A stretch of 64,000 bases of DNA from IMG/VR virus record IMGVR_UViG_3300034105_001970; one strand, 5' to 3'. Positions 19,145 through 39,008 of this stretch are shown here, piece by piece. The stretch is from a virus. Position 1 is the stretch's first letter; each line of letters begins with the position of its first letter. A model generated the notes under the pieces. The model did no database searches and was not told where the DNA came from. It worked only from the letters and a program-made list of their open reading frames with translations. A program made the position numbers and the translations under genes.

Positions 19145-19147
19145 CTA

Positions 19148-22001: not shown

Positions 22002-22022
22002 AAACACACTAAAACTTAACTA

Positions 22023-22035
22023 ATTGATTATCAAT
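22023..22035. promoter_or_regulatory. 13-nt perfect palindrome ATTGATTATCAAT (operator-like)
   Basis: Located 22 nt after the stop of the VWA gene; 21-nt context shared with 19148 copy. Confidence 0.4.
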
Positions 22036-22097
22036 GTGTTATACATTACCCTAAATGGATGTGTATAATGTGTTGATATTCAATAGGTTATAAATAG

Positions 22098-22176: not shown

Positions 22177-23409
22177 ATGAGTAAAAAAGCAACACAAGAG
22201 TATGGTTACACAAATGAAGTGTACAAAGTAGAAAATCTTAAATCCCGTTTTAACTTAGTTAATACTGCGGGTGATGTATTAAGTAGTTCAGATTCTACAA
22301 TAGTAGGTAGTTCTTTACGAAAAAAAGCATCAGCACAAAATAAAGCAATTCGTGCGCATGTAAACAAAAACGGAGCTAAAAGCTATCGTATGGTAGAAAT
22401 GCAAGAATATACGGATATGTTGGTTAAGCCGATGAATACGGATATCGCTGAAACTATCGTAGAAAATCCAACGGAGCATAAAGATGTTATCGATTTCATT
22501 CATAAAGAGGGTATGGCGTTAAAACCTGCTAACTTAATTATGAACGAGTTGAAGTGGAAATATTTATTACGTTCAGCGGTTCGAGCGCGAAATATTATGA
22601 TGACAGGACCTGCGGGTAGTGGTAAGACAATGGCAGCTAAAGCATTAGTTGCGGCATTGAAAAGACCGTTTCATTACTTTAACTTAGGTGCGACGCAAGA
22701 CCCGAGGGCGGCATTAATTGGTAACACACACTTTAACAAAGCAAGTGGTACTTATTTTAGTGAGAGTGCATTCGTTAAAGCTATTAAGACACCTTACGCA
22801 GTTGTGTTATTAGATGAATTAAGTAGAGCTCATCCAGAAGCCGCTAATATCCTAATGACAGTGTTAGACCAAACACAAAGATACTTACGATTAGATGAGC
22901 AAGAAAATTCACCAATTGTTAAGGTGGCAGAAGGTGTTACCTTTATTGCAACTGCAAACATCGGTTCTGAATATACTGCAACGCGTGTAATGGATAGAGC
23001 ATTGTTAGATAGATTCGTGACAATTGAGGTAGATGTATTGAATGCTGAGCAGGAATATGAATTGTTAAAGATGTTATATCCTGATACGAATGATTACAAT
23101 TTGAAATCAGTAGCAGAGATTGCGGCACACACTAGAGACCAAATCAAAGGTGAGGCGGGTAAATTGACAACTGCTGTATCAACTCGTATTTCAGTAGAGA
23201 TGGCAGGTTTGTTGTATGATGGTTTCAGTTTGTTAGAAGCAGCTGAGGTAGCAATCTTCCCGTTCTATTCACAAGATGGTGGTATGGATAGTGAGCGTAC
23301 TTACATTAAGCAACTTATACAAAAATTCGTAGTAGATGAGAATGAAGGTGAAAAGTTATTCAACGAAGTGAAAGAGGAAGATGCGAATGACGATACTATT
23401 GTTTGGTAA
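22177..23409 (+). CDS. AAA+ ATPase, MoxR/CbbQ/CobS-like
   Basis: Walker A MMTGPAGSGKT, Walker B VVLLDELSRAHPEAANILMTVLDQ; pairs with upstream VWA gene. Confidence 0.7.
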   Translation: MSKKATQEYGYTNEVYKVENLKSRFNLVNTAGDVLSSSDSTIVGSSLRKKASAQNKAIRAHVNKNGAKSYRMVEMQEYTDMLVKPMNTDIAETIVENPTEHKDVIDFIHKEGMALKPANLIMNELKWKYLLRSAVRARNIMMTGPAGSGKTMAAKALVAALKRPFHYFNLGATQDPRAALIGNTHFNKASGTYFSESAFVKAIKTPYAVVLLDELSRAHPEAANILMTVLDQTQRYLRLDEQENSPIVKVAEGVTFIATANIGSEYTATRVMDRALLDRFVTIEVDVLNAEQEYELLKMLYPDTNDYNLKSVAEIAAHTRDQIKGEAGKLTTAVSTRISVEMAGLLYDGFSLLEAAEVAIFPFYSQDGGMDSERTYIKQLIQKFVVDENEGEKLFNEVKEEDANDDTIVW

Positions 23410-24175: not shown

Positions 24176-26023
24176 ATGTTAAAAACAATTTTTACCATTT
24201 CAAATGGAAAAAAGAAAATAGAAATCAAAAAATCATTAAGAATTGCAGTTGAAGCATTGGGTAGTGATTTAAGATATATATTTGAAAATAAAGATAAATT
24301 TATTAATTCAACTAGAATCAATAGATATATTAAAGAACTAAAGAAAGCAGTTCGTAAAAATATGGTTACGGCGGCTACCAATGGATTTGGTACATCATCG
24401 CCGGTATATTATATTTCAGCGAAAACAATTATCAAAGTATTGAAAAGTGAATTAGCTACTAAAGAAATTTCAAAATTAAATGCAGAATTATCGCAAAAGG
24501 CAATATATGATACATCTATTGCTTATTTGAAAGATGATATTAACTATTTTTCTGAAAAGAGATTTAAAGATAAATATTTTTCAGTTAATGGGCAACATAG
24601 AATGACACAATATATAAGTGATTTGACTGGTAAATTACCAAAAACAAATGCTGAAATTCAATTTGCACCATTTATAGTTAATGATAAGGAAATAAAATTT
24701 GAATCTTTAAAAGATTTAGAAACAAAATGTACCTCAACAAATCCTTCAAAACAAATTAAAGAATTCAAAGGACTTTCAGTTGAAGAAACAACGAATATAT
24801 ATTTAAAATATTTAAGTGAATGCCCTATCAATATAATTGAAATTACTGAAGCAGATTCATTTGAAGATATAGCCAAATTTATATGGTATAGTAATTCATC
24901 CACTAGTTGGTCAGAATTTCTACATAAGTTTAAGTTAACAAAGAATCCATTTACAATTTTTGTTAGAGATAATATTGCATCAGAAACAACTGATAGTTCA
25001 GTAGGTGGGATATTGGAGATGTTATATGGTAAAGCAAATCCAGTAAAATTTGGAACAGGTAAGTTTCAAAAGAAAGATGGTGGATTTGAATATCTCATAT
25101 CAGTTATAGCAGATACATGTTATTATGATATAAAGCAATTACAAAGATTTGGATTTAAGAATGAACAACAAATGTTATCATCTATCTTAAGCAAAGATTG
25201 TGAAATAAGCGAATCGGATTTAAAGAGTATGAAATCAGATTTATTAAAAGTTGCTAAAGTTTTTAACAAAATTGGAAGTAACGAAAATAATAATGAAGCG
25301 TTAACTGCGATAATATCAAAACCATCAATGTTTATTTTATCTATATTTTTATATAACTATATAACTAAAGTATTTCAATATATGGATTCGTCTGGTAGAA
25401 TATGGAAACCAAAGATAGAATTAAGTAATTTAGAAAACGTTATTACTGATTTTATTGCAATATGTGAGTATTATAACAATCCAATGCATCCAATCAATAC
25501 ATATTATTGGGAAACAGAAGATGGTAAACAAACACTTGATAAGGTAAACCAATCTAGTCGAAGATATTTTACCTCTAAAGAAGAAATGGATGATTCTAAC
25601 TTTTTGAAAAGCTTCAAATCAATTGAAACAAAATGTAAGGAATCACAATATGATAAGAATAATATAGACAAAGCATTTCGCAAACATATTGGAGATAGTT
25701 TTGTAACCGGATGGCATGATAAACACGATACAATTGTTAATGTAGTTAATGAAAATTTGAAAAGTGCTTTTATTTCTAAAATGGAAAATAAGCAAGAGGA
25801 TGGTTACTTTAGTGACATTAATTGGACTGATGCAACTACTATGCCTTCATACACATCGTTTTTACCATCATTTGGAAATGCTTCAAAGAGAAAAGCAGAA
25901 TTATTTGGGAATACTAAACATAAAGGACATATTAAATCTAAATCAAAACGTGGTACTAACACAATTGATAATTTAGATTTGGAAAATCCATTAATGAATA
26001 TATCTACACAAAATGTAGTTTAA
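24176..26023 (+). CDS. large lysine-rich hypothetical protein with NGQHR (DGQHR-like) motif
   Basis: 615 aa; FSVNGQHRMTQY resembles the DGQHR motif of DndB/ParB-fold proteins; otherwise no match. Confidence 0.45.
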   Translation: MLKTIFTISNGKKKIEIKKSLRIAVEALGSDLRYIFENKDKFINSTRINRYIKELKKAVRKNMVTAATNGFGTSSPVYYISAKTIIKVLKSELATKEISKLNAELSQKAIYDTSIAYLKDDINYFSEKRFKDKYFSVNGQHRMTQYISDLTGKLPKTNAEIQFAPFIVNDKEIKFESLKDLETKCTSTNPSKQIKEFKGLSVEETTNIYLKYLSECPINIIEITEADSFEDIAKFIWYSNSSTSWSEFLHKFKLTKNPFTIFVRDNIASETTDSSVGGILEMLYGKANPVKFGTGKFQKKDGGFEYLISVIADTCYYDIKQLQRFGFKNEQQMLSSILSKDCEISESDLKSMKSDLLKVAKVFNKIGSNENNNEALTAIISKPSMFILSIFLYNYITKVFQYMDSSGRIWKPKIELSNLENVITDFIAICEYYNNPMHPINTYYWETEDGKQTLDKVNQSSRRYFTSKEEMDDSNFLKSFKSIETKCKESQYDKNNIDKAFRKHIGDSFVTGWHDKHDTIVNVVNENLKSAFISKMENKQEDGYFSDINWTDATTMPSYTSFLPSFGNASKRKAELFGNTKHKGHIKSKSKRGTNTIDNLDLENPLMNISTQNVV

Positions 26024-28486: not shown

Positions 28487-29576
28487 ATATTTTAGATATG
28501 AGAATAAAGAGTTTGTAGAATATGACCATTTACCATGTGGTTATATAAAACCTACAAAAGAATGTTTAGTATTAAGTATAATGGAAGATTCATCTCGTCC
28601 TAAAATTGAACGTATTGAATTATTCATAAAAAAACAAAACATTGAAAACGTATATTTAGATTTTATTTCTACTGAAAGTTATATTGATGTAAATACCTAT
28701 AAACGATTAGAAGCAGAGTTGAGTGGGTTTAATCTTAAAATACTGACGGTAAACATACTCAATTGTCAATTCAAATCGCATGTATTTTTTCCATTACACG
28801 CCTTACAATTAGCAGACAACTTTACAAAAGATGGGTTTATACAATCAAACAAATTTATACAATGGGATGTATTAAGAACTAAGAAACGATTAAAGAAATA
28901 TTTGTTTCTTAATCATCATATGAGAACTGAAAGGTTTAAAATATTTGAATCATTATACAACAATAATAATTTAGATGATGGTTTAGTTAGTTTTAATTGG
29001 ACATTGGCTAATGACAAGTTTGATAGTAGAATGTATGATGTGAGTAATTCGGATATGGAATACATTTTAAAATCAGATGCATATAAAGTATTACCAATAG
29101 AATTAGATGGTGATAACAATGCAAGTTATGTATTTGAAAATGATATTAAACATATAGCAAATCCTGTTTACTTTCAACCACAAAATACAAACGTAACGCA
29201 TTTTCATAATACTTACTTTGAAATTATAACGGAAGGATTTAGTTCACGTACACCCGTACATCCATACGCAGATAGAAGTAATATACTACACTATTCAGAA
29301 AAGATTTATAAGCCATTAATGTTTATGAATCCATTTAGTTTTTGGGGGCCTGAAAATACATTGGAACAATTTAGTAAGCATTTAGGATTTTCATTTGAAT
29401 GTCCTTTGTATCATTGTAATAATATGGGATATGATTTAGATGCATTTAATACTAAGGTAAATGAATTTGCTAGTTTATCATACTCCGATTTACATAGTAT
29501 TTATTATGATAACTTTGAAGAATTTGAACACAATAGAAATACATTAATTCGTTATTTAAAAAACATACAACTATGA
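28479..29576 (+). CDS. hypothetical protein, possible paralogue of 27230 gene
   Basis: FEIITEGFSS...HYSEKIYKPL weak version of the same motif; similar size; adjacent. Confidence 0.3.
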   Translation: MNKYFRYENKEFVEYDHLPCGYIKPTKECLVLSIMEDSSRPKIERIELFIKKQNIENVYLDFISTESYIDVNTYKRLEAELSGFNLKILTVNILNCQFKSHVFFPLHALQLADNFTKDGFIQSNKFIQWDVLRTKKRLKKYLFLNHHMRTERFKIFESLYNNNNLDDGLVSFNWTLANDKFDSRMYDVSNSDMEYILKSDAYKVLPIELDGDNNASYVFENDIKHIANPVYFQPQNTNVTHFHNTYFEIITEGFSSRTPVHPYADRSNILHYSEKIYKPLMFMNPFSFWGPENTLEQFSKHLGFSFECPLYHCNNMGYDLDAFNTKVNEFASLSYSDLHSIYYDNFEEFEHNRNTLIRYLKNIQL

Positions 29577-29977
29577 GTGAAAGAAAATATCTCCCAACAT
29601 TAGCGGAGTTAATTGACAGATTGAGTATAGCTCAATTAAAAGAAGTAAAGATTCCTGAACACAAAGCAGAATACGCACAGGAAATTGCGGATATCGTACA
29701 TGATATTCAATTGTGTTTAGATAATAGTGACAAGCCAATTAGTGGCGAAACGATTAGAGCAATTGTAGTATTATCACAAATCAATGCACATATTTGGCAG
29801 AATGAATCGAACTATCGTAAAGGAATTAAAGAGGGAAACAATTTAGAATTAACACATGGTATCAATGGTATCAGAAATGTAGCAAAAAATAAAATTCAGG
29901 AAGTTGTTGGTGGCAGAATGGATTATAAAATAGATTGTTTAGCGGCAGAGTTTAAAGATTGGGAAATTTCCTGGTAA
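29573..29977 (+). CDS. hypothetical protein
   Basis: 134-aa ORF with ATGA overlap; followed by 260-bp non-coding island. Confidence 0.35.
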   Translation: MSERKYLPTLAELIDRLSIAQLKEVKIPEHKAEYAQEIADIVHDIQLCLDNSDKPISGETIRAIVVLSQINAHIWQNESNYRKGIKEGNNLELTHGINGIRNVAKNKIQEVVGGRMDYKIDCLAAEFKDWEISW

Positions 29978-30036
29978 TAATACATAAAATAAGGGTTGAT
30001 ATTATATAAAAATGTAATATAATAACTCAAATTCCT

Positions 30037-30084
30037 AACCCATTGATTATCAAAGAGTTATAACTTATTGATTCTCAATGGGTT
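30037..30084. promoter_or_regulatory. 48-bp near-palindrome built from ATTGAT half-sites around central AGTTATAACT
   Basis: AACCCATTGA...TCAATGGGTT 10-bp perfect outer arms; 21/25 symmetric positions per arm; contains two ATTGATTnTCAA(T/A) copies. Confidence 0.45.
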
Positions 30085-30127
30085 ATATATGTCTATAACT
30101 TTTTACCCATATATAAAAAAATCATAT

Positions 30128-30245
30128 ATGTAACTCATTGATAGTCAGTCAAAAATCTTTGAAAAACCTAAAAATAGTTACTTTGGCCTGTTCAAAGTCC
30201 AATATAAAGTCGTATCTTTATGTATTGAGTCGAGAGAATGGGTAG
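30128..30245 (+). repeat. regulatory module, copy 1 (homologous to 38523-38625)
   Basis: About 110 bp shared with 38.5-kb copy; 41-nt core CAATATAAAGTCGTATCTTTATGTATTGAGTyGAGAGAATG differs at 1 position. Confidence 0.5.
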
Positions 30246-30426
30246 TCACATAGTAAAATTTTATAATATGAATAGTGTAACATTTCAGTTCAACATTGAA
30301 TTTGAATTTAAAGATGAATCTAAATTAGATAATCTGGCAAAACAATTACAAACAGTCTTAGATAGTTTTTCTATTGAAGATAGAAAGTTTGAAATAGTAT
30401 TTAAACATAATGAAGAAACTAAATAA
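30238..30426 (+). CDS. hypothetical small protein
   Basis: 62-aa ORF starting inside conserved module; followed by terminator. Confidence 0.3.
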   Translation: MGSHIVKFYNMNSVTFQFNIEFEFKDESKLDNLAKQLQTVLDSFSIEDRKFEIVFKHNEETK

Positions 30427-30431
30427 AAAAT

Positions 30432-30457
30432 TGTGGGTTTATCCCACATTTTTTTTC
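30432..30457 (+). terminator. intrinsic terminator
   Basis: GTGGG-TTTAT-CCCAC hairpin then TTTTTTTT. Confidence 0.55.
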
Positions 30458-30479
30458 TATAACAATTAAAAGCAAATAT

Positions 30480-31328
30480 ATGAATAACACAATGAAGTTT
30501 ACAACAATTGGTAATGCTAAAAAGCAAACGGGTTTATCTTATTTAGGTAGTGTAGCGAGCAGTTCAAAAATCGCTAAAGGGTTAAAGTACAATGAAATGA
30601 CTTACATATTGTATCTTGCTCCTGCTGAACAAAGTGGTTACAATGTTTGTCCGGGTTCTACGGCTGAATGTAGAGAAGCTTGTTTAACTGAAAGTGGACA
30701 CAATAGAATTGATGTTAAGAAAAACGCAATCAATAAAGCTCGTATCAAAAAAACTAAATTGTTCTTTGAGCAGAGAGAGTTCTTTATGGGTTGGTTAGTA
30801 GCTGAGATTAGTAAAGCTAAAGCTGATGCAATTGCTAAAGGTTTTACATTTTCAGTTAGATTAAATGGCACATCCGATATTCAGCCAACATTGTTTAAAT
30901 TCAATGGTAAAGTGATTTTCGATATATTCAACGAAGTGACATTTTATGATTATACTAAGGTTGCTAATCGCTTTAAGTTGTTAGATAAGTATTCTAACTA
31001 TGATTTGACTTATTCTTTTAGTGGTTACAATATGTTACAATCATTAGAGTTATTAGAAAATAATAAAGGTAGAGTTGCTATGGTATTTGAAGGTAAACAA
31101 TTACCAATATCATTTATGGGTTATAAAGTAATTGATGGTGATGCATACGATATGAGACACTTAGATGAGACGGGTGTAATTGTAGGATTGAAGTTTAAGT
31201 TTGTTAGAACTAAGATTGATACTGCACATAACAAATTCATTATCCCTATGGATAGCAAGTTTAGTGTGTATGATGTTAATCCAATGATAACAAAAGCCGC
31301 TCAAAGTAAATTAGTAAAAGTAAAATAG
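30480..31328 (+). CDS. hypothetical protein
   Basis: 282-aa ORF; Cys cluster CPGSTAECREAC; no family recognised. Confidence 0.4.
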   Translation: MNNTMKFTTIGNAKKQTGLSYLGSVASSSKIAKGLKYNEMTYILYLAPAEQSGYNVCPGSTAECREACLTESGHNRIDVKKNAINKARIKKTKLFFEQREFFMGWLVAEISKAKADAIAKGFTFSVRLNGTSDIQPTLFKFNGKVIFDIFNEVTFYDYTKVANRFKLLDKYSNYDLTYSFSGYNMLQSLELLENNKGRVAMVFEGKQLPISFMGYKVIDGDAYDMRHLDETGVIVGLKFKFVRTKIDTAHNKFIIPMDSKFSVYDVNPMITKAAQSKLVKVK

Positions 31329-31586
31329 TATGACAAAGAAACAAAAGAAATTCTTAGATAAAAAATTAGAGAAATTTTTGAAAAGATTAGAAACACCAAA
31401 AATCAAAGAAGTGTTTGTAAGATTAAAAGATAGATAATGAAAACGGCGTATGAACGAACTATCAAACGAAGTGACCAAAAAGAAGCGGGTGTGTTTGATG
31501 GTAGGTATAAACCAAAAGTTGTACCAAACAAAAAGAAAAAAGCTCAAAAGAATTGGGCTCGTAAAAATAAATAAAAACTATAATAT

Positions 31587-32075
31587 ATGAATTTAGAATT
31601 AACATTATTGGAATTGAATCAGTTGTATTATGCAACTAGTAAGTTAGTAGAACAAAATGAATCTCACTTAAAAGAGTTGGGTACAAATATTAGTAGTATA
31701 GAATACTTTACTAATGAATTAAATAAATCAGTAGTATTGAGAGATAAAATACAAACTGCTTTATATGATGAGTGTAAAAGTTTAGATGAAGCATTAGAAT
31801 ATGTAAGTAAGTTTAATGCAGAACAATACGATAGAGAACGTGATATTCTTAAAAATGCTATTGATGAGGAAATTGAACCTGAATATGATGGTGCGGGTTT
31901 TACCGAAGATGATAGAATAGTAAATGGTGAGTATAGAGTAATATCAAACGAAGATGCAGATGAAGATGCTAAACAAAGAGATTATAGTGCATTCAATAAT
32001 TATGCAGATACTCTAAAACAAGATGAACAAAGATATAACAATAAAAAATTATTCACATTAAACCAAAATAGATAA
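31587..32075 (+). CDS. hypothetical acidic protein
   Basis: 162-aa ORF, Glu/Asp-rich. Confidence 0.35.
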   Translation: MNLELTLLELNQLYYATSKLVEQNESHLKELGTNISSIEYFTNELNKSVVLRDKIQTALYDECKSLDEALEYVSKFNAEQYDRERDILKNAIDEEIEPEYDGAGFTEDDRIVNGEYRVISNEDADEDAKQRDYSAFNNYADTLKQDEQRYNNKKLFTLNQNR

Positions 32076-32076
32076 T

Positions 32077-32427
32077 ATGAGAACAACCGATGCAAAAGCA
32101 ATAGAGTATCTTAAAGGCAATCCTATTGTTGCCACATTTATTGATGAAGTGAATGCAAAACGATTAAAGTATTATACTACTGCTGATATGGTTAGACAAT
32201 ATAAGGAGTTAGTAGTTGAAATTGGTAATAAGTATATCCGTTTATGGACTGGAACTACTTGTTGGGGTTTCATTAGTAGAGTGGATGGTGATTTGAAAGG
32301 TGCACCGATTAAGAAAGGTGACTTATTGAAACCGGCAACTTGGAAAGCACCAGCAAAACATGCACGTGGTAACATAATAGATGGAACTGCACAATGGGGT
32401 GAGTACGGACCTTCTTATATAAAATAA
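32077..32427 (+). CDS. hypothetical protein
   Basis: 116-aa ORF, 1-nt spacing. Confidence 0.35.
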   Translation: MRTTDAKAIEYLKGNPIVATFIDEVNAKRLKYYTTADMVRQYKELVVEIGNKYIRLWTGTTCWGFISRVDGDLKGAPIKKGDLLKPATWKAPAKHARGNIIDGTAQWGEYGPSYIK

Positions 32428-32437
32428 AACAAACAAC

Positions 32438-33124
32438 ATGAGTATCAATAGAACAAAAACCTTTATCGCAACTATCCCAATGAAAAGTGAGGAGCAAGTT
32501 ATCGAAATTAAAAAAGTATTAGAGCAAATCTTTGGTTGGGTAGTATTGAAAGGTAGACATAATAACCGAAAATCAGTAGTAACAAATTGGAGTGTTGGTA
32601 AACAAAATGATGTACCTTGGCGTAAAGCAACATACATTGACATCTATTTGCATCCTAAGAATCCAAACTACAATAGTTCAAAAGGTATTCATAGACAGAA
32701 TATGAAGTTGAATGATAATAATGTAGTTATTGCTCGTATGTTAGGTAATATGAAATTGGGTTTAGCAGATGGATATTACAATACGATACAAGGTAAAGGT
32801 AGCAATGTGTATCAAACAATAATGAATTTATATTATCAAAACAAACAAAAAGCCGTAGTGACAAACACACCAAAAGTGCATCCACGTTCTAATCAACCAT
32901 ATGGGCAGATTACAAAACAAATATGGCAGTTTATGAATAATAGATTTGATGCAAGTTTTACTGAATTGAAAACGTACTATGATGTTGATATTAGGGGTAA
33001 CAAAACGATATTGAATGGTGGCAGTTTTATTCATCATCATCAATCATTAACAAAACATTCAGCAAAGCGTGGTTGGTATTTAGCTAAACAATTAAACGGC
33101 AAGTATGCATTGAGGGGATGTTAA
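32438..33124 (+). CDS. hypothetical protein
   Basis: 228-aa ORF. Confidence 0.4.
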   Translation: MSINRTKTFIATIPMKSEEQVIEIKKVLEQIFGWVVLKGRHNNRKSVVTNWSVGKQNDVPWRKATYIDIYLHPKNPNYNSSKGIHRQNMKLNDNNVVIARMLGNMKLGLADGYYNTIQGKGSNVYQTIMNLYYQNKQKAVVTNTPKVHPRSNQPYGQITKQIWQFMNNRFDASFTELKTYYDVDIRGNKTILNGGSFIHHHQSLTKHSAKRGWYLAKQLNGKYALRGC

Positions 33125-33125
33125 T

Positions 33126-33320
33126 ATGAGAACATTTTTATTATGGTATTTAGTAGCGTTATTTCCGTTGCTATTTACAATCAAAAAACAAATGAAAGGT
33201 AGAGCATTAGAACATGATGTAAAATACAATCTTTATGTATTCATTAAATGTTTATTTTACTTACCGAGATGGTATTACTTAATAATTACAGAAGCAATTT
33301 TTAAAAATAAAAACAAATAA
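33126..33320 (+). CDS. small membrane protein
   Basis: TM helix LLWYLVALFPLLFTI. Confidence 0.3.
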   Translation: MRTFLLWYLVALFPLLFTIKKQMKGRALEHDVKYNLYVFIKCLFYLPRWYYLIITEAIFKNKNK

Positions 33321-33321
33321 A

Positions 33322-33537
33322 ATGTTAGATACAATTAAAATGAAATTCTTTCTTAAAATGAGAGAAATTGAAGAACAACGAGAAGAAACAATGGGCAGTT
33401 TAGAATTTCAGAATTGGATGCGGGAGTTAAATATATCTCAATCATATGAGGACCCAACATTGAAACTAAATGCTGGTGACTTAATGAGACAATACGATAT
33501 GAAAAAATATTCTAACTTAAACTTTAAAAATAATTAA
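33322..33537 (+). CDS. hypothetical small protein
   Basis: 71-aa ORF. Confidence 0.3.
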   Translation: MLDTIKMKFFLKMREIEEQREETMGSLEFQNWMRELNISQSYEDPTLKLNAGDLMRQYDMKKYSNLNFKNN

Positions 33538-33538
33538 T

Positions 33539-33943
33539 ATGAACTTAATAGAATCGATTGAGAAATCAAAATGGATGAGCAAAGCAGGTTATCATAAAGA
33601 AGCCTTAGACTTATGTAATGAAGCCTTAACATACTTAACAAAGAAGGATATGGAAGGTGAAACAAAAGTGAAATGTTATACACCTGTTTGGGGTGAGCCT
33701 ATTGTTACTAAATATGGTAGAGCAAAGCGTGTTGATAGGTACGATAAGGTAGAAACAAAAGCAATAGAGTTTTGGAAAGATAGGTTCTATGATTTGTTAT
33801 TGTTATTCACACAAAGATACAATCGTAAGATGGGTATCAAACCAAAGAAAGAAAAACCATTTAAGAAACATGGTATTGAAACATTTATGAGTACGGCAAC
33901 ATTTGGTTCAATGGGAGCTGGTGGTAGAAATCATTTAGACTAA
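33539..33943 (+). CDS. hypothetical protein
   Basis: 134-aa ORF with basic C-terminus. Confidence 0.35.
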   Translation: MNLIESIEKSKWMSKAGYHKEALDLCNEALTYLTKKDMEGETKVKCYTPVWGEPIVTKYGRAKRVDRYDKVETKAIEFWKDRFYDLLLLFTQRYNRKMGIKPKKEKPFKKHGIETFMSTATFGSMGAGGRNHLD

Positions 33944-34098
33944 TGAAAACATATTACGATATAACCATAGTGACAAAGTTAGGTGATAGGGTAAATATAA
34001 ACAAATTATCTTATTCACATATTACACAATTGACCACTAATACGGATATAGAAACAATAATAATAAACAAAGAGTATTCAAAGAAAATAAAATAAGTT

Positions 34099-34434
34099 AT
34101 GACAAGTAAAATCAAATCAGTTTCATTCTCTTTACTTAAAAGAGAGTTTAATGTATCAGAGTTATTAACCAATATTCGTTCCGTTGGTCCTGTTGTATGG
34201 AGTTGGGGAATGTGTGAAATGAGTAGTTTAGATAATAAAGGTTTATTATTTAAAGTTAGTGGACATCATCACAAAGGATGGGTATTAATTACATTAGATT
34301 GGAGTGATACATTTGAGGTACACTTAATTAATGCAGATAGTTCAATTAAGAAAACATTTGATATGGTTTACATTGATAGTTTGATTGACACGATTGACAC
34401 CGCAGTTGAAAAGATTGCAGATTATCAATATTAA
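34099..34434 (+). CDS. hypothetical protein
   Basis: TAAGTTATG junction. Confidence 0.35.
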   Translation: MTSKIKSVSFSLLKREFNVSELLTNIRSVGPVVWSWGMCEMSSLDNKGLLFKVSGHHHKGWVLITLDWSDTFEVHLINADSSIKKTFDMVYIDSLIDTIDTAVEKIADYQY

Positions 34435-34444
34435 AAAATAAGTT

Positions 34445-34777
34445 ATGAAATTTAAATCACATTTCCCACCTGTTTCATATCAAGGAATCTTTGATAAACA
34501 ATGGTATGTTATATGTAGTTCCGATGGTGATGGCTGGGTTAAAGTAAATAGAAATTATCAATGGAGTGAGTTAGAAACATTATGGCATAAAATTGAGTAT
34601 GGTAAAAAACCTAAACTAATAAAAACAAAACTAAAAGAGTTTAAAGTAAATGGTAGTAAAGGTAATGTATATAAGGTAGTAAATGATGAAGGTATTTGGA
34701 CTTGTAGTTGCCCGGCACATGGTTTCGGACGTGGTAAAGATTGTAAACATATTATATCAATAAAAAATAAAAAGTAA
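34445..34777 (+). CDS. SWIM zinc-finger protein
   Basis: C-terminal WTCSCPAHGFGRGKDCKHI (CxC...CxH). Confidence 0.4.
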   Translation: MKFKSHFPPVSYQGIFDKQWYVICSSDGDGWVKVNRNYQWSELETLWHKIEYGKKPKLIKTKLKEFKVNGSKGNVYKVVNDEGIWTCSCPAHGFGRGKDCKHIISIKNKK

Positions 34778-34781
34778 AATT

Positions 34782-35159
34782 ATGGGATTAGACATGTACG
34801 CGTTTTCTACTAACGCAAAACCGAAAACGGATGTAGACTTTGAAACTAAGAATTTTAAACCAGAGGAAGTTTTCTATTGGCGTAAACATCCTAACTTACA
34901 TGGTTGGATGCAATCTATATATGATACAAAGGGTGGAACATCGGATAGTTTTAATGGTGATTGTGTTGTATTAGATACTTTTGATTTAGATGCATTAGAA
35001 GCGGATATTAGAGAAGGTAATTTGCCTGATACATCCGGTTTCTTTTTTGGTGAGAGTTCTAATGGTGATGAAGAAAATGAAAACGATTTGTTATTTGTTA
35101 CTAAAGCAAGGGAAGCAATAGCAAATGGTAAGACAGTATATTACACAAGTTGGTGGTAA
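34782..35159 (+). CDS. hypothetical protein
   Basis: 125-aa ORF. Confidence 0.35.
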   Translation: MGLDMYAFSTNAKPKTDVDFETKNFKPEEVFYWRKHPNLHGWMQSIYDTKGGTSDSFNGDCVVLDTFDLDALEADIREGNLPDTSGFFFGESSNGDEENENDLLFVTKAREAIANGKTVYYTSWW

Positions 35160-35254
35160 TATGAAAACAATAATAACAAAAGTTCTATTCATTCTTAGAG
35201 AGTGGATAAAACAACATCATGAAATGGAAAGAGTCACAAATAAAATAAAAAGTT

Positions 35255-35470
35255 ATGATAAAAAGTAAAAATGAAAAATTGGGAATTGAAATTGATTTGA
35301 CGGGACCTGATGGTAACGCGTTTGTATTGATTGGTATGGCTAGTAGATTAGCTAAGCAATTAGGATTAGATGGTAAAGCTATTCAAGCAGAAATGATGAA
35401 AGGTAATTACGAACATTTATTAGAAGTGTTTGATAGAGAGTTCGGCGAGTTTGTAACATTATATAGATAA
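35255..35470 (+). CDS. hypothetical small protein
   Basis: 71-aa ORF. Confidence 0.3.
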   Translation: MIKSKNEKLGIEIDLTGPDGNAFVLIGMASRLAKQLGLDGKAIQAEMMKGNYEHLLEVFDREFGEFVTLYR

Positions 35471-35488
35471 CATTAAAAACAATAAGTT

Positions 35489-35854
35489 ATGAAAAAAATA
35501 TTTCCAAAGAAAGAAAGAGGACCAATGATGCTAATGGATAAGGTATTTACTATTGGTGTGTTCTCCGCAAATACACAACAATATGTATGCACCAAAGTGA
35601 CCGATTTAGGAAATGATGGGACATATAAAAAATATGGAGTTCATTTCAACTGGTTACCAACAACATTTGCAGTACCGGAAATAATGAGAATGGATATTAC
35701 ATTAAACAATGGAAGTAATCACATTGAAGTTCAGTTATTTGAAAAACGACCGAATGGTTCATATCTACCTTTATTCCATAAAGGATATGATAAGGAAAGA
35801 ATATCATCGGTAGTAAATATTCAAAGTATGCTTAACGATTTAATTAAAAGTTAA
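35489..35854 (+). CDS. hypothetical protein
   Basis: TAAGTTATG junction. Confidence 0.35.
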   Translation: MKKIFPKKERGPMMLMDKVFTIGVFSANTQQYVCTKVTDLGNDGTYKKYGVHFNWLPTTFAVPEIMRMDITLNNGSNHIEVQLFEKRPNGSYLPLFHKGYDKERISSVVNIQSMLNDLIKS

Positions 35855-36231
35855 TGAAAACAAAAACATATTTTAGTGAGTTCAAAAGTGATGTTGCAGT
35901 TGCAATACTAACCAAAGATGACTACCGATATGAAGTAATGAAACCACTATTTGAACAATGTGGTTTTGGTTTCGCTGAGACAAGTTCGGGTTGTGTATTC
36001 ATAGATGGTGAAGTGAAATTGACCAAAGATGAATTGTGGTGGGTAGAAGCACATGAAGTAGCACACATAATGTTGAAACACACAAAGGATAGAAACGAAA
36101 GTGATGAAGTTGCGGCTGATATGTATTCAATCATATTACTATTAGATAAAGGGTATAAGAAAGCAGCACAATTAGTAGAGGATAAATTTGAAGAAAGACA
36201 TAAAAGAAAATATTATGAAACTAACAATTAA
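35854..36231 (+). CDS. small HExxH-motif protein (ImmA/IrrE-like metallopeptidase candidate)
   Basis: WWVEAHEVAHIMLKH. Confidence 0.35.
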   Translation: MKTKTYFSEFKSDVAVAILTKDDYRYEVMKPLFEQCGFGFAETSSGCVFIDGEVKLTKDELWWVEAHEVAHIMLKHTKDRNESDEVAADMYSIILLLDKGYKKAAQLVEDKFEERHKRKYYETNN

Positions 36232-36544
36232 GAACTTTGAAAAACTATTCCGTAAACAATGGGATGATAAAAACTACATTGAAGATATTGATGAAAGGAG
36301 AGATGAATATAGAATTAATGTATGGCGAGGTAATATGAGACATATCATTATATTAAATAGAAGGCCGGTAGAACTTAACCCATCAGCTATATCGGATGGT
36401 TATTACACAATTGGAAAATGGAGTAACGAAGCATTTTGTGTAAGATATCCCTATTGGATAAAGCATGAGGACATAGTGAATATAAATAGTCTAATGAACA
36501 AACTTAAATTACTAACGGATGAATGGACACCTAAATTATTATAA
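36215..36544 (+). CDS. MLTIKN-family small protein (N-terminus MKLTIKNFEKL)
   Basis: Track ORF starts at TTG 36188; first ATG 36215 gives family N-terminus with one inserted Lys. Confidence 0.4.
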   Translation: MKLTIKNFEKLFRKQWDDKNYIEDIDERRDEYRINVWRGNMRHIIILNRRPVELNPSAISDGYYTIGKWSNEAFCVRYPYWIKHEDIVNINSLMNKLKLLTDEWTPKLL

Positions 36545-36547
36545 GTT

Positions 36548-36952
36548 ATGAATTACAATATAATACTAGCAATCGCAATGGTATGTTTACCTTACGAAAT
36601 GGAACGAGAGGAATTAAGAATCAACACAATGATTGAAACGATTACTCCCGAAATAGTGACACTAACCACATATAAAGCAAATGCAGCCGAAACGGATAGT
36701 ACACCAAATATAACTGCGAGTGGATTTAAGATTACTAATCCAAAGAAACATAGAATTATTGCAGTTAGTAGAGATTTAAAAAAGAAATATAAGTTTGGAC
36801 AAAAGATTAGAATTGTTGGTGCCGGCAAATATGATGGTACATATAGAGTTCACGATGTAATGAACAAACGATATACGAAACGAATTGATATATTAATTGG
36901 AGCAAACGATAAACAAACTAAATTAAGAAAAATTAAAATTTATAAAATATGA
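36548..36952 (+). CDS. 3D-domain (MltA/YuiC-like) protein with N-terminal signal anchor; candidate peptidoglycan hydrolase
   Basis: TTYKANAAETDSTPNITASG...RIIAV...KIRIVG...RVHDVM...RIDIL matches 3D-domain layout (TAY...ITASG...D.G...RIDLF). Confidence 0.4.
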   Translation: MNYNIILAIAMVCLPYEMEREELRINTMIETITPEIVTLTTYKANAAETDSTPNITASGFKITNPKKHRIIAVSRDLKKKYKFGQKIRIVGAGKYDGTYRVHDVMNKRYTKRIDILIGANDKQTKLRKIKIYKI

Positions 36953-37476
36953 AAAAGCCAGAAAACTTTCACAAAGTAGATAACGAAAAAATTAAATTTG
37001 GAAATACTGAAATTGAAATTGATGTATGTAAAGAGGGATTCTTTGTTCAGCAACGATACGATGGAAGTTGGAAAAATTGTGTATTGTTTGAAATGAATTG
37101 GGATAAAAACCAATACAATGTTAAAATATGTGCAATTGGTGATGGTATGGATGGTTGGTATATACATGAAGATATGCCTATCGTAAAAGATTCAATTCTA
37201 ACGATAGAACGATTTAAGGAATTTGTTATCGATAGTATGTATGATGTGGCAAATAAAGTTAATTTAGAAGTGGTACAACCTGATACAATGGGTATGACTG
37301 ATATGACGTTAACTGAAATTAAACATAGTGTAGCGAGTAGTTCAGGTCCTAATACAACATATGAAGTGACCGAAAATGTACTTGGAACTAGTGATTGGAG
37401 TTGTACTTGTCCTGCATATCAGTATAGTAAAGAAACACCACAAACTTGTAAACATATTAAACAACTTAAACCATAG
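36949..37476 (+). CDS. SWIM zinc-finger protein
   Basis: C-terminal WSCTCPAYQYSKETPQTCKHI. Confidence 0.4.
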   Translation: MKKPENFHKVDNEKIKFGNTEIEIDVCKEGFFVQQRYDGSWKNCVLFEMNWDKNQYNVKICAIGDGMDGWYIHEDMPIVKDSILTIERFKEFVIDSMYDVANKVNLEVVQPDTMGMTDMTLTEIKHSVASSSGPNTTYEVTENVLGTSDWSCTCPAYQYSKETPQTCKHIKQLKP

Positions 37477-37479
37477 TGT

Positions 37480-37830
37480 ATGCTAACCATTAAAAACTTT
37501 AATGAACTTAAAGGTAATTATATTGAATGTGATGGTTATACATTATCCATTGAGGATATAAACGAAGGTACGGAAAAGTATGCAATAACAGTTTCATTGA
37601 TAAAACAAAATGGAACAATACAAGATTACATTGGATTTACTCTATTAAGGGATAGCAGTGCAAAATATAGTGGTAACTATGTTATGTATCAAACACACGC
37701 ATCTCATTTAAGAACCGAAGTGACTTTGAATTGTATTAAAAACAAAGATTGGTTTGGTTATATGATATGCCAAATGGCGGGTAACAATAATTGGCAAATG
37801 AAAATTAAACCTATTAAAGCATATAAATAG
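37480..37830 (+). CDS. MLTIKN-family small protein
   Basis: N-terminus MLTIKNFNEL; rest unrelated to other members. Confidence 0.45.
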   Translation: MLTIKNFNELKGNYIECDGYTLSIEDINEGTEKYAITVSLIKQNGTIQDYIGFTLLRDSSAKYSGNYVMYQTHASHLRTEVTLNCIKNKDWFGYMICQMAGNNNWQMKIKPIKAYK

Positions 37831-37831
37831 A

Positions 37832-37863
37832 TTTGGTAGTATCAGAAAAATTAACTACCTTTA
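37832..37863 (+). promoter_or_regulatory. Bacteroidota-type promoter
   Basis: aTTTGGTAg-N20-TACCTTTA. Confidence 0.45.
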
Positions 37864-37883
37864 TAGATTAAATAAAACAAATT

Positions 37884-38147
37884 ATGAAAACATTTAAAGA
37901 TATTGAATTTAAAACAAACCCTATGGGTGCTGAGTTTGGTATTGTAAGTAGAACTAAATTAGATAATGGATATGAAGTATCAGTAGTACAAAGTCCGCAC
38001 TCGTATGGTGGTGATATCGGATTGTATGAATTAGCTATTTTCAAAGATGGTGAAATATGTTACGATACGCCGATTACGAATGATGTACTTGGTTATTTAA
38101 GACCCGAAGATGTAATGGATGTAATTGCTAAACTTGAAAAATTATAA
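37884..38147 (+). CDS. hypothetical small protein
   Basis: 87-aa ORF. Confidence 0.35.
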   Translation: MKTFKDIEFKTNPMGAEFGIVSRTKLDNGYEVSVVQSPHSYGGDIGLYELAIFKDGEICYDTPITNDVLGYLRPEDVMDVIAKLEKL

Positions 38148-38148
38148 T

Positions 38149-38472
38149 ATGCTTACAATAAAAAACATAGAAAAAATGGTTGGTTATACTTGTAATAGCC
38201 GAACCATAAAAGAATTTTATAATCTACATAATCAAAGAATGAATTATGATTCTTATGTATTTGTATTTAAAGATGATGGTGCGGGCAAACCGGATTGTGA
38301 AGTTTATTTAGACAGAGATAAAAAACCACAAGGTAATTATAAACTATATGTTATGGGATGGGCAGCAGCTACCGAAGTCGAAATAGATAATTCAGATGTT
38401 AGAAGTGCAGCTGATTTGGCAACTATGATAACAAAATGTTTAGCAAAATTGGATAACTATAATTTTAAATAA
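38149..38472 (+). CDS. MLTIKN-family small protein
   Basis: Track ORF begins at TTG 38125; ATG 38149 gives MLTIKNIEKM. Confidence 0.45.
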   Translation: MLTIKNIEKMVGYTCNSRTIKEFYNLHNQRMNYDSYVFVFKDDGAGKPDCEVYLDRDKKPQGNYKLYVMGWAAATEVEIDNSDVRSAADLATMITKCLAKLDNYNFK

Positions 38473-38522
38473 TATTAGGTATCATATAATAAAAAATACT
38501 AATATGATAAGGTTATATTGAC

Positions 38523-38625
38523 GTAACTAGTTGATTCTCAATAAAAACTTTTAAAATTAGTTCACTTTGGGCATTGCCAATTCAATATAAAGTCGTATCT
38601 TTATGTATTGAGTTGAGAGAATGAC
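38523..38625 (+). repeat. regulatory module, copy 2 (homologous to 30128-30245)
   Basis: gTTGATTCTCAAT palindrome variant, TTCACTTTGGGC, then the 41-nt core with CGTATCTTTATG. Confidence 0.5.
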
Positions 38626-38652
38626 TACTCATATAATAAAAAATCATAATAT

Positions 38653-38991
38653 ATGCTAACACTAAATAATATAGAAAAATTAAAAAATACATACATTGGA
38701 AAATGGGAAGTCTTGGGAGTAGAAGTATGTGGTGCTAGTGAACATCACATAAACGCAGACCATTATAATATTCGTTTAAGTAGAAATAGTAATAGTAAAG
38801 ATAGTGTTGGTGCCGCTATTCAAATTGAAAGAAAAGCAGGGGAATTTGGTTATAATATTTGCGTATGTTATGAACACTATGATAAATTTATTTCAATTAC
38901 AGCATGGCCGAAAGATAGATTACTAGATAAAAAGAATTTCTTAGCTTCAATGCAAGGGATTTTAGATGCCGAATATGATAAACGTAAATAA
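38653..38991 (+). CDS. MLTIKN-family small protein (variant MLTLNNIEKL)
   Basis: Divergent N-terminal decapeptide; first gene after module copy 2. Confidence 0.4.
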   Translation: MLTLNNIEKLKNTYIGKWEVLGVEVCGASEHHINADHYNIRLSRNSNSKDSVGAAIQIERKAGEFGYNICVCYEHYDKFISITAWPKDRLLDKKNFLASMQGILDAEYDKRK

Positions 38992-39008
38992 AATATAAAA
39001 CCTAAAAT

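Follow-up and report, generated by a model that had tools for sequence, protein, structure and literature searches.

A candidate factor-controlled promoter-leader cassette placed before different genes in a family of freshwater Bacteroidota phages

The 64,000-nucleotide stretch of viral DNA considered here (IMG/VR record IMGVR_UViG_3300034105_001970, hereafter the window) contains two closely similar segments, at 30128–30245 and 38523–38625. What kind of element do they represent? A preliminary description took them for a duplicated regulatory module, a separately regulated and activator-dependent promoter class set apart by an unusual distance between its TTTG and -7 boxes, with a downstream part that could be a shared leader, a translated start or the start of a small RNA. 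Judged from the sequence, the candidate factor-controlled promoter cassette is real, with both activation and repression considered for the factor, and its phage family places it before different genes. The reading developed below, which we rate at about an even chance, sees each segment as a copy of a portable promoter-leader cassette of large uncultured freshwater Bacteroidota phages on which a predicted factor acts positively. As such it is an ordinary kind of element, save for the spread of its palindrome across Bacteroidota genomes and phages.

Anatomy of the two copies

The 41-nt core, CAATATAAAGTCGTATCTTTATGTATTGAGTYGAGAGAATG, is found at 30200–30240 and again at 38583–38623 with a single mismatch when read directly, just as previously stated, and about 6e-11 pairs of this kind would be expected by chance in the window. 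It lies within a wider repeat pair (30169–30269 and 38552–38652, family D6 in a repeat search of the window) of 77 % identity. An ATTGAT-type palindrome is likewise present in each module, the one in copy 1 being imperfect. The reported "TTCAC" upstream block is exact in copy 2 (TAGTTCACTTTGGGC) but not in copy 1, which reads TAGTT-ACTTTGGCC. The parts of the two copies are as follows, with promoter positions numbered after the -7 element of F. johnsoniae (PMC6847099).

Copy 1
30036–30060, no strand assigned: distal operator 1, a full 25-bp palindrome, TAAC-CC-ATTGA-TTA-TCAAA-GA-GTTA
30061–30085, no strand assigned: distal operator 2, TAAC-TT-ATTGA-TTC-TCAAT-GG-GTTA
30130–30149, plus strand: proximal operator, imperfect, GTAAC-TC-ATTGA-TAG-TCAGT
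30150–30179, plus strand: three A5 tracts, CAAAAATCTTTGAAAAACCTAAAAATAGTT, UP-like or bent DNA; copy 2 has one fewer
30180–30210, plus strand: variable spacer with a non-conserved TTTGG at 30182–30186
30211–30222, plus strand: extended -7 box, CGTATCTTTATG, with TATCTTTA at 30213–30220 (-12 to -5)
30223–30267, plus strand: start region and 5' leader of about 45 nt, with the inferred +1 predicted near 30224–30227
30268–30426, plus strand: 52-aa open reading frame, function unassigned, missing from eight related contigs
30432–30456, plus strand: intrinsic terminator, TGTGGGTTTATCCCACA followed by T8, which closes the inserted mini-gene

Copy 2
38523–38542, plus strand: proximal operator, GTAAC-TA-GTTGA-TTC-TCAAT
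38543–38562, plus strand: two phased A-tracts, AAAAACTTTTAAAATTAGTT, 80–99 % conserved in 26 modules of the 58-bp class defined below
38563–38593, plus strand: variable spacer with a non-conserved TTTG at 38566–38569
38594–38605, plus strand: extended -7 box, CGTATCTTTATG, with TATCTTTA at 38596–38603
38606–38652, plus strand: start region and 5' leader, with a predicted +1 near 38607–38610
38653–38991, plus strand: 112-aa gene of the MLT(I/L)KN paralogue family, with the ATP-dependent DNA ligase gene next (39009–40118)

The proximal operator of copy 1 is centred on 30143, 68 bp from the C of CGTATC and thus at about -82; that of copy 2 is centred on 38536, 58 bp from the same C, at about -72. 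The A-tract region of copy 1 is some 10 bp longer than in an orthologue of the type carried by contig L005, which preserves the helical phase.

A family of related modules and its promoter boxes

At least 66 distinct related modules were collected from lake metagenomes and from IMG/VR contigs syntenic with the window; many are close relatives, and the spacing classes described here reflect few independent events. Two scans of viral contigs with 15–16-nt patterns returned mostly chance matches, which were filtered with BLAST. Three parts are conserved in the 66 modules: an upstream operator of consensus GTAAC-N2-RTTGA-N3-TCAAT together with its A-tracts, the extended -7 box, and the leader of about 45 nt, which ends in an A-rich, Shine-Dalgarno-free TATAATATG start. 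Within the 26 modules of the 58-bp class, conservation is high from -84 to -45 (the operator plus A-tracts), low from -44 to -18 and high again from -17. The invariance of -12 to +12 is partly built into the search pattern; the upstream block lies outside that pattern, and its conservation is therefore independent evidence. The operator centre is 48 bp from the box in 27 modules, 58 bp in about 29 and 68 bp in 4, with exceptions at 65 bp (2 modules) and 59 bp (1 module), some of these assignments having been corrected by eye. Counted from position -14, about 60 of 63 modules fall into three main classes with the centre at about -62, -72 or -82, absolute positions that may be off by about 2 bp given that the transcription start is predicted.

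A near-identical search with the DNA of 29000–40000 against cultured and deposited phages gave no match, and a search with the 714-aa vWA protein returned just two distant matches, uncultured or cyanophage. The core pattern had no match in 185,579 bacterial species genomes, and a host gene is therefore not the source of the leader.

The -7 element read by the primary sigma factor of Bacteroidota, TAHHTTTG, lies about 5 nt upstream of the transcription start (PMC6847099). The TATCTTTA of both copies agrees with this consensus at 7 of 8 positions, the exception being an A for G at -5 that is common to all 14 promoters of this phage; the CGTATCTTTA box of the cassette recurs in 12 other intergenic, gene-proximal promoters of the window. 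The odd spacing is genuine. From the start of TTTG to the C of CGTATCTTTA there are 29 nt in copy 1 and 28 nt in copy 2, whereas all 12 other TATCTTTA-type promoters in the window have exactly 22 nt; the earlier figures of 26–28 against 20 express the same fact in another way of counting. At the standard 22 nt, TTTG is absent from both copies: TGTTC (30189–30193) occupies the canonical -33 position in copy 1, and in copy 2 the ATTGCC at 38573–38578 is a likely weak -33 that sits one nt off.

The view that the shifted TTTG is itself functional does not survive comparison, since the TTTGG at 28 or 29 nt becomes TTAGG, CTTCG, TATCG or TTTGA in orthologues and falls in the least conserved stretch. 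Moreover, 27 sister modules share the operator, -7 box and leader and have their TTTGG at the canonical 22 nt, the arrangement of the 48-bp class, so odd spacing does not define the promoter class. The 58- and 68-bp classes do without the canonical TTTGG and have ATTGCC at 21 nt, TGTTCA, or TTTG at 24 nt instead; the -33 element is weakly conserved even in F. johnsoniae (PMC6847099). What stands of the proposed activator-dependent class is a distinct group of at least 66 modules with an upstream element of its own, and the want of a consensus -33 at a working distance in the window copies fits dependence on a bound factor. What falls is spacing as its defining character.

Two other explanations of the core region were rejected. 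MerR-type promoters hold the regulator's palindrome inside a 19–20 bp spacer between otherwise good boxes; here the spacer is 6–7 bp too long, shows no conserved palindrome and varies more than any other part of the module. An inverted repeat around the -7 box (CAATATAAAG and CTTTATGTATTG) is out of register in other lineages, which have AAAATATTG or TCAAAAAAAG instead.

The palindrome, its putative factor and the leader

One correction concerns the ATTGAT palindromes, which are not confined to the two modules. Copy 1 is preceded by two more full 25-bp palindromes at 30036–30085, and sites also stand before two canonically spaced promoters of the window:

19142–19211, no strand assigned: operators before the canonical promoter with its box at 19259 (full site 19142–19166, weaker site 19193–19211)
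22017–22090, no strand assigned: operators before the canonical promoter with its box at 22121 (full sites 22017–22041 and 22066–22090)

These operators lie 43 and 92 bp, and 54 and 105 bp, from their boxes, roughly half a turn out of phase with the 48/58/68 series. The full 25-bp palindrome, of consensus TAAC-N2-RTTGA-N3-TCAAY-N2-GTTA, occurs commonly in genomes of Bacteroidota and Fibrobacter as well as in crAss-like and Lak phages, and a search of bacterial genomes for a fixed distance between palindrome and -7 box found none. Literature searches, by sequence and on the REP/RAYT elements and LexA motifs of Bacteroidetes, yielded no description of it. Identity with the non-canonical LexA operator of Bacteroidetes, GGA-N5-TCC or CTAA-N5-TTAG (PMC8565304), can be dismissed, as the consensus differs from both motifs. 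A screen of about 100 window ORFs against Pfam and PHROGs recognised no helix-turn-helix, ParB or sigma protein. The out-of-phase operators of the canonical promoters, the absence of a preferred -7 distance in bacteria and the lack of a recognised regulator in the window are observations that speak against activation.

Since the palindrome abounds in bacterial genomes, the putative factor that binds it may be host-encoded. A broader proposal, tentative and rather doubtful, is that TAAC-N2-RTTGAT-N-ATCAAY-N2-GTTA is the site of an undescribed Bacteroidota/Fibrobacterota factor that phages have copied, thereby tying sets of their promoters to a host factor. It would cover this freshwater family, the crAss-like phages (in their main divergent control region) and the Lak megaphages.

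How could such a site act on the cassette? The favoured reading is that (G/A)TAAC-N2-RTTGA-N3-TCAAT would be bound by a dimeric DNA-binding protein. This site is followed by one to three phased A-tracts and then by some 30 bp of poorly conserved spacer, in which a consensus -33 is missing at the working distance. Next come an extended -7 box, TCGTATCTTTATG, that the host primary-sigma RNA polymerase would read, and the conserved start region with its leader of about 45 nt, which ends in TATAATATG. From a position at about -62, -72 or -82, always on the same helix face, the protein would recruit or stabilise the polymerase, and with the help of the bent A-tract DNA this class-I-like activation would make up for the missing -33. 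The genes behind the cassette (the GP88-family gene, the DNA ligase block and a third one immediately beyond the window) would then share one regulation, distinct from that of the operator-less TTTGG-N17 promoters. Furthermore, the common leader would give each of them the same 5' end and start context, and the 3' edge of the cassette, at the ATG, is the junction for the insertion or exchange of small genes.

Class I activators offer a comparable geometry. E. coli CAP works from sites at -61.5, -71.5 and -82.5, and the late promoter A3 of phage phi29 works with protein p4. In these cases, as in the cassette, the upstream hexamer is weak or absent, a dimer-type palindrome stands upstream of the core promoter at positions that are whole helical turns apart, and bent A/T-rich DNA separates site and promoter. 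Positions near -61.5 plus multiples of about 10 bp, on one helix face, describe those same 60 or so of 63 modules relative to the predicted start. However, half-sites of the form TAAC..TTGA with a 3-bp spacing fit neither p4 nor CAP (TGTGA-N6-TCACA) nor FNR (TTGAT-N4-ATCAA), some members of the cassette family do have a consensus -33, and both the activator and its positive sign are here only putative.

The same operator is carried by sister modules with a perfect -33, which counts against activation and means that the operator does more than stand in for an absent -33. A further argument comes from the layout of copy 1, where three operators and an ATTGAGT at +1 resembling an operator half-site form an arrangement typical of cooperative repression or looping. 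The palindromes could be operators of a phage- or host-encoded repressor that, bound cooperatively at the upstream sites and the +1 half-site and looping the DNA, would shut the promoters off, the outcome being early-gene shut-off or delayed onset. This is a serious possibility, though on the whole an unlikely one. It would account for the several operators per promoter (three before copy 1, two each before the 19259 and 22121 promoters), for their mutual spacings of 25 and 49–51 bp, for operator centres at whole helical turns from +1, for the retention of the operator beside a consensus -33, and for the identity of the leader-initial ATTGAGT with the left half of operator variants such as ATTGAGTATCAGT in relatives. 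Yet most repressors act at the -33 to -7 core, which none of the operators overlaps, and the +1 element is only a half-site. The weak -33 boxes of the window copies would be unexpected if repression were needed, and no repressor gene was found in the window.

Are the palindromes protein sites at all? They might instead be structures, hairpin terminators or insulators against read-through set beside a constitutive promoter, in the manner of the terminator-plus-promoter PeSL cassettes discussed below. The double palindrome at 30036–30085 does form a single long hairpin (-23 kcal/mol, z = -6.4). Of the sites in bacterial genomes, 29 % have at least 4 further complementary bp outside the 25-mer, the inner variable positions are complementary more often than expected, and some sites follow tRNA genes and carry T-runs; in the window, G+C-rich terminators at 54841–54865 and 58377–58401 abut operator-less promoters. 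The in-module sites, however, are half-palindromes that form no RNA hairpin (-1.9 kcal/mol, z = 0.16 in copy 1; -1.5 kcal/mol, z about 0 in copy 2), yet no upstream block is better conserved, and they stand away from the -7 box by fixed steps of 10 bp. The TAAC arm is kept in 39 of 39 proximal sites without a complementary right arm, which together with the lack of hairpin energy speaks for the proximal operator being a protein site rather than an RNA structure. In addition, single full sites make weak hairpins (-5.2 and -1.7 kcal/mol), a T-run is absent after 30085, and structure alone would not demand phylum-wide conservation of sequence. We regard the structural reading as improbable.

The downstream half raises a separate question. 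A shared transcribed leader agrees with the data, with its roughly 45 nt conserved in related modules behind a predicted start, whereas two other suggestions for this part find no support. The ATG of the core is not a conserved start: relatives have ATA, TTG, AGT, ATC, AGC or GAG in its place. In copy 1 it is non-coding (30238–30240) and followed by an A-rich run before the true start, and in copy 2 (38621–38623) it opens only a 12-codon frame, out of frame with the gene. A mini-ORF, leader peptide or N-terminal extension from this ATG was rejected, since the start is lost in 7 of 30 leaders and a stop or frameshift follows in 6 more, copy 2 of the window among them, so that 13 of 30 are affected. 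Nor is a small RNA supported, given that no terminator follows the leader and no Rfam match was found: the whole window gave none at gathering thresholds, and 30000–30400 gave only chance-level miRNA matches at E of 1 or more in a search up to E of 10.

The downstream half might still be a functional RNA, with a 5' stem-loop GAGUY-GAGAGAAU-GACUC stabilising the mRNA or binding a regulator, or a leader peptide that controls the gene, which we consider quite improbable. The 5-bp helix is paired in 83 % of cells over 30 distinct leaders and begins 2–4 nt from the predicted 5' end. One of its pairs is A-U in 19 leaders and, by a clean switch, G-C in 10, and changes of the closing pair from C-G to U-G suit RNA better than DNA symmetry. 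On the other hand, the covarying pair may be a single event, the 5' arm is constrained by the search pattern, and the peptide version meets the lost, stopped or shifted frames just described. As a general explanation the hairpin was rejected: the whole copy-1 lineage is without the helix (GGTAGTC or AGTAGTC), it is weak in copy 2 of the window, folding is no better than in shuffled sequence (z = +1.5, +0.4, -0.7 and -1.35), and Rfam holds no match.

Finally, the idea that the likeness is no more than a recent duplication or gene conversion of an ordinary promoter region with an accidental TTTG spacing, in line with the relic-like decay of the TTTGG block and the frequent recombination in the mosaic genomes of this family, is already disfavoured and very improbable, since the flanks fall to 77 % identity or less while operator, A-tracts and -17 to +45 are kept across lineages that differ by 10–25 % elsewhere, some ten different genes are preceded by the cassette, and spacing shifts come in 10-bp steps.

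Gene exchange at the start codon and comparable systems

The start codon of the cassette is the exact point at which different small genes replace one another. In eight related contigs (L005, L160, L185, L190, L195, L206, L210 and L212) the stretch corresponding to 30275–30477 is missing, alignments jumping from 30274 to 30478, and the cassette is fused straight to the GP88-family gene (30480–31328 in the window). In L155 and L209 the cassette runs straight into the ligase gene, and in L003 and L157 into a different one. Altogether, breakpoints at 30274/30478 and 38652/38987 occur in at least 10 related contigs.

This behaviour recalls the PeSL (promoter-early stem-loop) elements, mobile regulatory cassettes of T4-like phages (Arbiol et al. 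2010, PMC2839356; PMC4122927). Both are short repeated cassettes with a strong host-type promoter and an A/T-rich upstream part that end at the downstream start codon, stand before small genes of unknown function, and mark breakpoints of insertion, deletion and replacement between close relatives. However, PeSLs combine sigma-70 -35 and -10 boxes with a G+C-rich stem-loop terminator, whereas the present cassette has a promoter of the Bacteroidota -7 type, what it repeats upstream is an A/T-rich palindrome, conserved in sequence and set at fixed helical steps, and its leader is conserved as well. Gene shuffling at conserved promoter cassettes, known from T4-like coliphages, thus operates in an unrelated phage lineage.

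Other systems share single traits. T4 middle promoters consist of a MotA box at -30 plus a -10 element, with sigma remodelled by AsiA. There, too, a good downstream element is paired with the site of a separate DNA-binding factor in place of the upstream hexamer, but the MotA box lies inside the core promoter and the conserved site here at -60 to -85. In the KorB operators of plasmid RK2 and the dispersed centromere repeats of phage N15, a single palindrome recurs across a mobile genome, at no set distance from the several promoters whose expression it coordinates. By comparison, the window yielded no protein of the ParB family, and the present palindrome has an unrelated sequence and occurs also in many unrelated bacterial genomes. 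Phage phi14:2, a crAss-like Cellulophaga phage, has extended tripartite middle promoters (bioRxiv 10.1101/2020.03.07.982082). Compared by description, this too is a phage of a Bacteroidota host in which host-RNA-polymerase promoters with an extra conserved block, in addition to both core elements, form a temporal class; it is unrelated to the window, with no DNA match.

Gene regulation in Bacteroidota phages is almost unexplored, and the -33/-7 promoter rules of their hosts are still being worked out. In this setting the cassette is a compact natural test case, in which a strong -7 box, no usable -33 and a palindrome at -62, -72 or -82 can be set beside sister versions that have a -33, and it bears on the question of whether upstream factors can replace the -33 contact. 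Many Bacteroidota genomes contain the palindrome, and so do crAss-like phages, a recurrence that points to a cis element common to them. If the factor proves to belong to the host, the helically phased cassette would be the first defined promoter architecture that uses it.

The phage and its duplicated, probable promoter cassette

The 64-kb window has a G+C content of 29.8 % and ORFs almost all on the + strand, and a search of deposited phages with its DNA from 29000-40000 returned no close relative. Homologous contigs, almost all related ones coming from freshwater-lake metagenomes, reach 157 kb and 239 kb. Its recognisable genes, listed here, suggest a large phage rich in accessory genes:

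39009-40118, ATP-dependent DNA ligase
19857-22001 and 22177-23409, vWA protein (CobT-like) paired with an AAA ATPase (MoxR/CobS-like)
In the window, glycosyltransferase-like proteins
In the window, HAD RNA-repair-type protein
In the window, UvdE, metallophosphatase and SPFH protein

The repeated promoter of the intergenic regions, TTTGG-N17-CGTATCTTTA, is of the Bacteroidota -33/-7 type (consensus TTTG / TAHHTTTG, -7 element at -12 to -5; Baez et al. 2019, PMC6847099). No Shine-Dalgarno sequences precede the genes, whose start contexts are rich in A, in agreement with the Shine-Dalgarno-free, A-rich context favoured in Bacteroidota (PMC6847099).

Two modules share a 41-nt core with one mismatch (copy 1, 30200-30240; copy 2, 38583-38623), about 6e-11 such pairs being expected by chance, within a wider likeness of 77 % identity over 101 nt. 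They are very probably paralogous copies of a factor-controlled promoter-leader cassette that comprises an operator palindrome, A-tracts, a variable spacer, an extended -7 box (CGTATC) and a leader. As the preliminary description had noticed, an ATTGAT-type palindrome lies upstream in each, and TTTG is oddly spaced. It lies 29 nt (copy 1) and 28 nt (copy 2) before the C of CGTATC, whereas 12 other window promoters have exactly 22. The separate promoter class and shared leader it proposed are real, but among the parts of the module only the displaced -33 box, which it had singled out, lacks evolutionary conservation.

Exact-pattern scans located the cassette in IMG/VR contigs and 66 metagenome contigs, which are syntenic mosaics of the window at 75–95 % identity (BLAST); removal of duplicates left 66 distinct modules. 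Invariance from -12 to +12, the span of the search pattern, is not evidence, while everything outside it is free evidence. In the profile drawn from 26 distinct modules sharing the copy 2 geometry, conservation is 80–100 % from about -84 to -45 (GTAAC-N2-GTTGAT-N3-CAAT, then AAAAACTTTTAAAAATAGTT), 30–70 % over -44 to -18, and climbs again from -17. The misplaced TTTGG is located in this trough; orthologues have CTTCGA, TATCGG, TTTGAG or ATTTGA (copy 1) and TTAGG, TTTTAGG or TTTTGTG (copy 2) in its place, and it has the look of a relic in decay. Where a canonical -33 box would stand, the copy-1 lineage retains TGTT(C/A)AAAGTCC and the copy-2 lineage CATTGCC, with TTG one nt closer than usual. 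A third, more numerous group, found in relatives before a 124-aa gene some 650 nt past the window end, shares operator, -7 box and leader with the two copies. Since its 27 distinct modules carry a perfect TTTGG at 22 nt, operator, box and leader define the class, not the odd -33 spacing.

Transcription is predicted to start 4-8 nt past the box (~30224-30227 in copy 1, ~38607-38610 in copy 2). The core ATG, in GAGAGAATG, had been taken as a possible translated start; it is lost, stopped or frameshifted in 13 of 30 distinct leaders and was rejected. It is replaced in seven (ATA, AGT, ATC, AGC, GAG), followed by a stop in three and frameshifted in three, including copy 2 (12-codon frame). The true start is the second ATG, within TATAATATG or TATATATG, after the A-run. 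For a 5-bp leader helix, GAGUY/GACUC with loop GAGAGAAU, 83 % of cells are paired and one pair covaries (A-U in 19 leaders, G-C in 10). As the copy-1 lineage lacks the helix altogether, copy 2 has it only in weak form, the folding energies do not stand out and Rfam gave no match, the downstream half is treated as start region plus generic leader and the 5' hairpin as an optional feature of some lineages. A functional RNA element is thus one of the less likely readings.

Operator structure and proposed control

Thirty-nine instances give the operator consensus (G/A)TAAC-T-C-(G/A)TTGAT-W-N-TCAAT. Besides the modules, two promoters of normal spacing (boxes 19259, 22121) have the palindrome in front of them, and two further full palindromes adjoin each other at 30036-30085. 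Nine of the 12 exact window matches to the extended half-site TAACNNRTTGA fall in four intergenic regions, those of the two copies and these two boxes. The vWA and AAA genes each have their own operator-bearing promoter; among deposited phages, relatives of the CobT-like protein turned up only in an uncultured phage of 484 kb and in a phage of Microcystis (34 % identity). An 89-aa protein behind another such promoter (19268-19537) has two CxxC pairs with TraR/DksA-type zinc-finger spacing and could be an RNA-polymerase secondary-channel binder; Pfam and PHROG gave no match for it at the thresholds used. A 615-aa protein (24176-26023) has a GQHR motif and, towards its C-terminus, the pattern H..N..N; by eye only, it is reminiscent of DUF262/DUF1524 (GmrSD-like) nucleases.

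Distal sites extend symmetrically into NN-GTTA(T), whereas the copies' proximal sites, with A-rich sequence in place of that right arm, are unable to fold into the full hairpin. As RNA they reach -1.9 and -1.5 kcal/mol, which is not better than shuffled sequence, and the TAAC arm is invariant though unpaired, which argues for a putative sequence-specific recognition site in double-stranded DNA. The double site at 30036-30085 folds as one long hairpin (-23 kcal/mol, z = -6.4) and may in addition shield the cassette from transcription arriving from upstream. A purely structural insulator is one of the less likely readings of the palindromes. Directly 5' of the copy 1 proximal operator lies an A/T-only inverted repeat, CATATAT-N9-ATATATG (30108-30131), persisting as CATAT...ATATG in several related lineages.

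As regards the distance from the proximal palindrome centre to the C of CGTATC, with some automatic assignments amended by eye, 27 modules have 48 bp, about 29 (copy 2 among them) have 58 bp and 4 (copy 1 among them) have 68 bp, with exceptions at 65 bp (two modules) and 59 bp (one). Many modules being closely related, no more than a few independent events stand behind the three classes. Taking TATCTTTA as -12 to -5 of the predicted start, the operator centres lie at about -62, -72 and -82. The 10-bp steps parallel how many A5 tracts separate the operator from the promoter, the stretch being CAAAAATCTTTGAAAAACCTAAAAATAGTT in copy 1 and AAAAACTTTCAAAAATAGTT in its 58-bp-class orthologue, contig L005.

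Class-I activator sites with bent upstream DNA are used by CAP and phi29 p4, and the cassette operators are positioned alike. Positive, class-I-like control via the operator, which would make up for the missing -33 box, is tentatively favoured over repression by looping. The geometry would suit a looping repressor equally, and repression of this kind is given a lesser, rather doubtful place; mere accident is also less likely. At the canonical promoters the operators stand at 54 and 105 bp (box 19259) and at 43 and 92 bp (box 22121), about half a turn out of phase with 48/58/68, so that no single spacing rule holds. Among some 100 window ORFs scanned with Pfam and PHROGs, none was recognised as a helix-turn-helix, ParB-like or sigma protein.

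Gene exchange at the cassette

In eight related contigs the alignment skips from window position 30274 to 30478; they lack the 52-aa ORF (30268-30426) and terminator (30432-30448 plus T-run), and the cassette directly precedes a GP88-family gene (PF17338, E = 9e-33). At the second locus a 112-aa gene comes next in the window, L156 and L164, another gene in L003 and L157, and the ligase gene directly in L155 and L209, with the 112-aa gene upstream of the cassette in L209. All breakpoints fall at the start codon, and about 10 different N-termini follow the cassette across the module set. On these alignments the cassette is a junction for gene exchange, matching in its swapping at the start codon the PeSL cassettes known from T4-like phages, where modules are shuffled by way of such repeated promoter cassettes (PMC2839356).

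The PeSL design proper is seen at operator-less window promoters (54841-54875, 58377-58413, 61595-61625), where a G+C-rich terminator hairpin abuts or overlaps the promoter and its T-run enters the -33 TTTG; at 54841-54865 and 58377-58401 the terminators abut the -33 box. By analogy, this arrangement is a Bacteroidota counterpart of the PeSL terminator-plus-promoter design. The pair 58368-58410 / 61536-61578 forms a repeat of its own, D19.

Small paralogous genes starting MLT(I/L)KN(Y) (38653, 57358, 57656, ~58096, 61189, 63514) have repeated DNA at the start codon (repeat families D9, D10). The gene behind copy 2 is a member and brings its own ATATGCTAAC start, hence the 2-nt frame offset of copy 2. 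Direct repeats at ends or starts of adjacent genes, 46818-46878 / 47588-47648 (61 nt, 98 % identity) and 59847-59952 / 60656-60761 (106 nt, 92 %), suggest recent tandem gene duplications. Homing-type endonuclease genes, HNH in the window (15573-16199) and GIY-YIG adjoining the third cassette in relatives (L188 4938-5255, L004 8202-8519), fit a mosaic, recombination-rich genome.

The palindrome in Bacteroidota and their phages

The 25-bp palindrome TAAC-NN-RTTGAT-N-ATCAAY-NN-GTTA, present in the window at 22017-22041 and 30036-30085 among others, and also at 1501-1527 of locus L340, is widespread. An exact scan with TAACNNRTTGATNATCAAYNNGTTA of one genome per bacterial species gave at least 120 loci, against about 10 chance matches estimated for the whole bacterial collection. 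Among the matches listed, about 112 of 120 are from Bacteroidota or Fibrobacter. Nine of these loci belong to Fibrobacter and about 38 contigs to a single Microscillaceae MAG; others come from Saprospiraceae, Cytophagales, Prevotella, further Bacteroidales, Flavobacteriaceae and Chitinophagales. In the same matches the sites are intergenic (76 versus 3 inside ORFs) and lie without regard to gene orientation (42 between tandem genes, 18 convergent, 16 divergent), several after tRNA genes or before integrase, plasmid-type Rep, dnaA or parA. Within this listed set, too, 29 % have at least 4 more complementary bp beyond the 25-mer, inner variable positions are complementary more often than expected, and no preferred distance to a -7 box was found. 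In bacteria, the palindrome may serve as a protein site, as a hairpin, or as the two together.

Among phages, Prevotella Lak megaphages carry it several times, and it is also present in phages of Parabacteroides and Cellulophaga and, in crAss-like phages, in the large divergent intergenic region, for example:

95981-96007 (locus L339, 1501-1527), Carjivirus communis (BK010471), upstream of RepL
64097-64123, crAss-like phage cr8_1, divergent intergenic region

A literature search found no description or binding factor, and a reading as Bacteroidetes LexA operator was discarded, the palindrome matching neither LexA motif. As it is common to Bacteroidota and Fibrobacter genomes and their phages, the factor reading it, if any, may be host-encoded. 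The cassette is of an already known kind of element and hence of moderate interest; the phylum-wide palindrome is the part most deserving follow-up.
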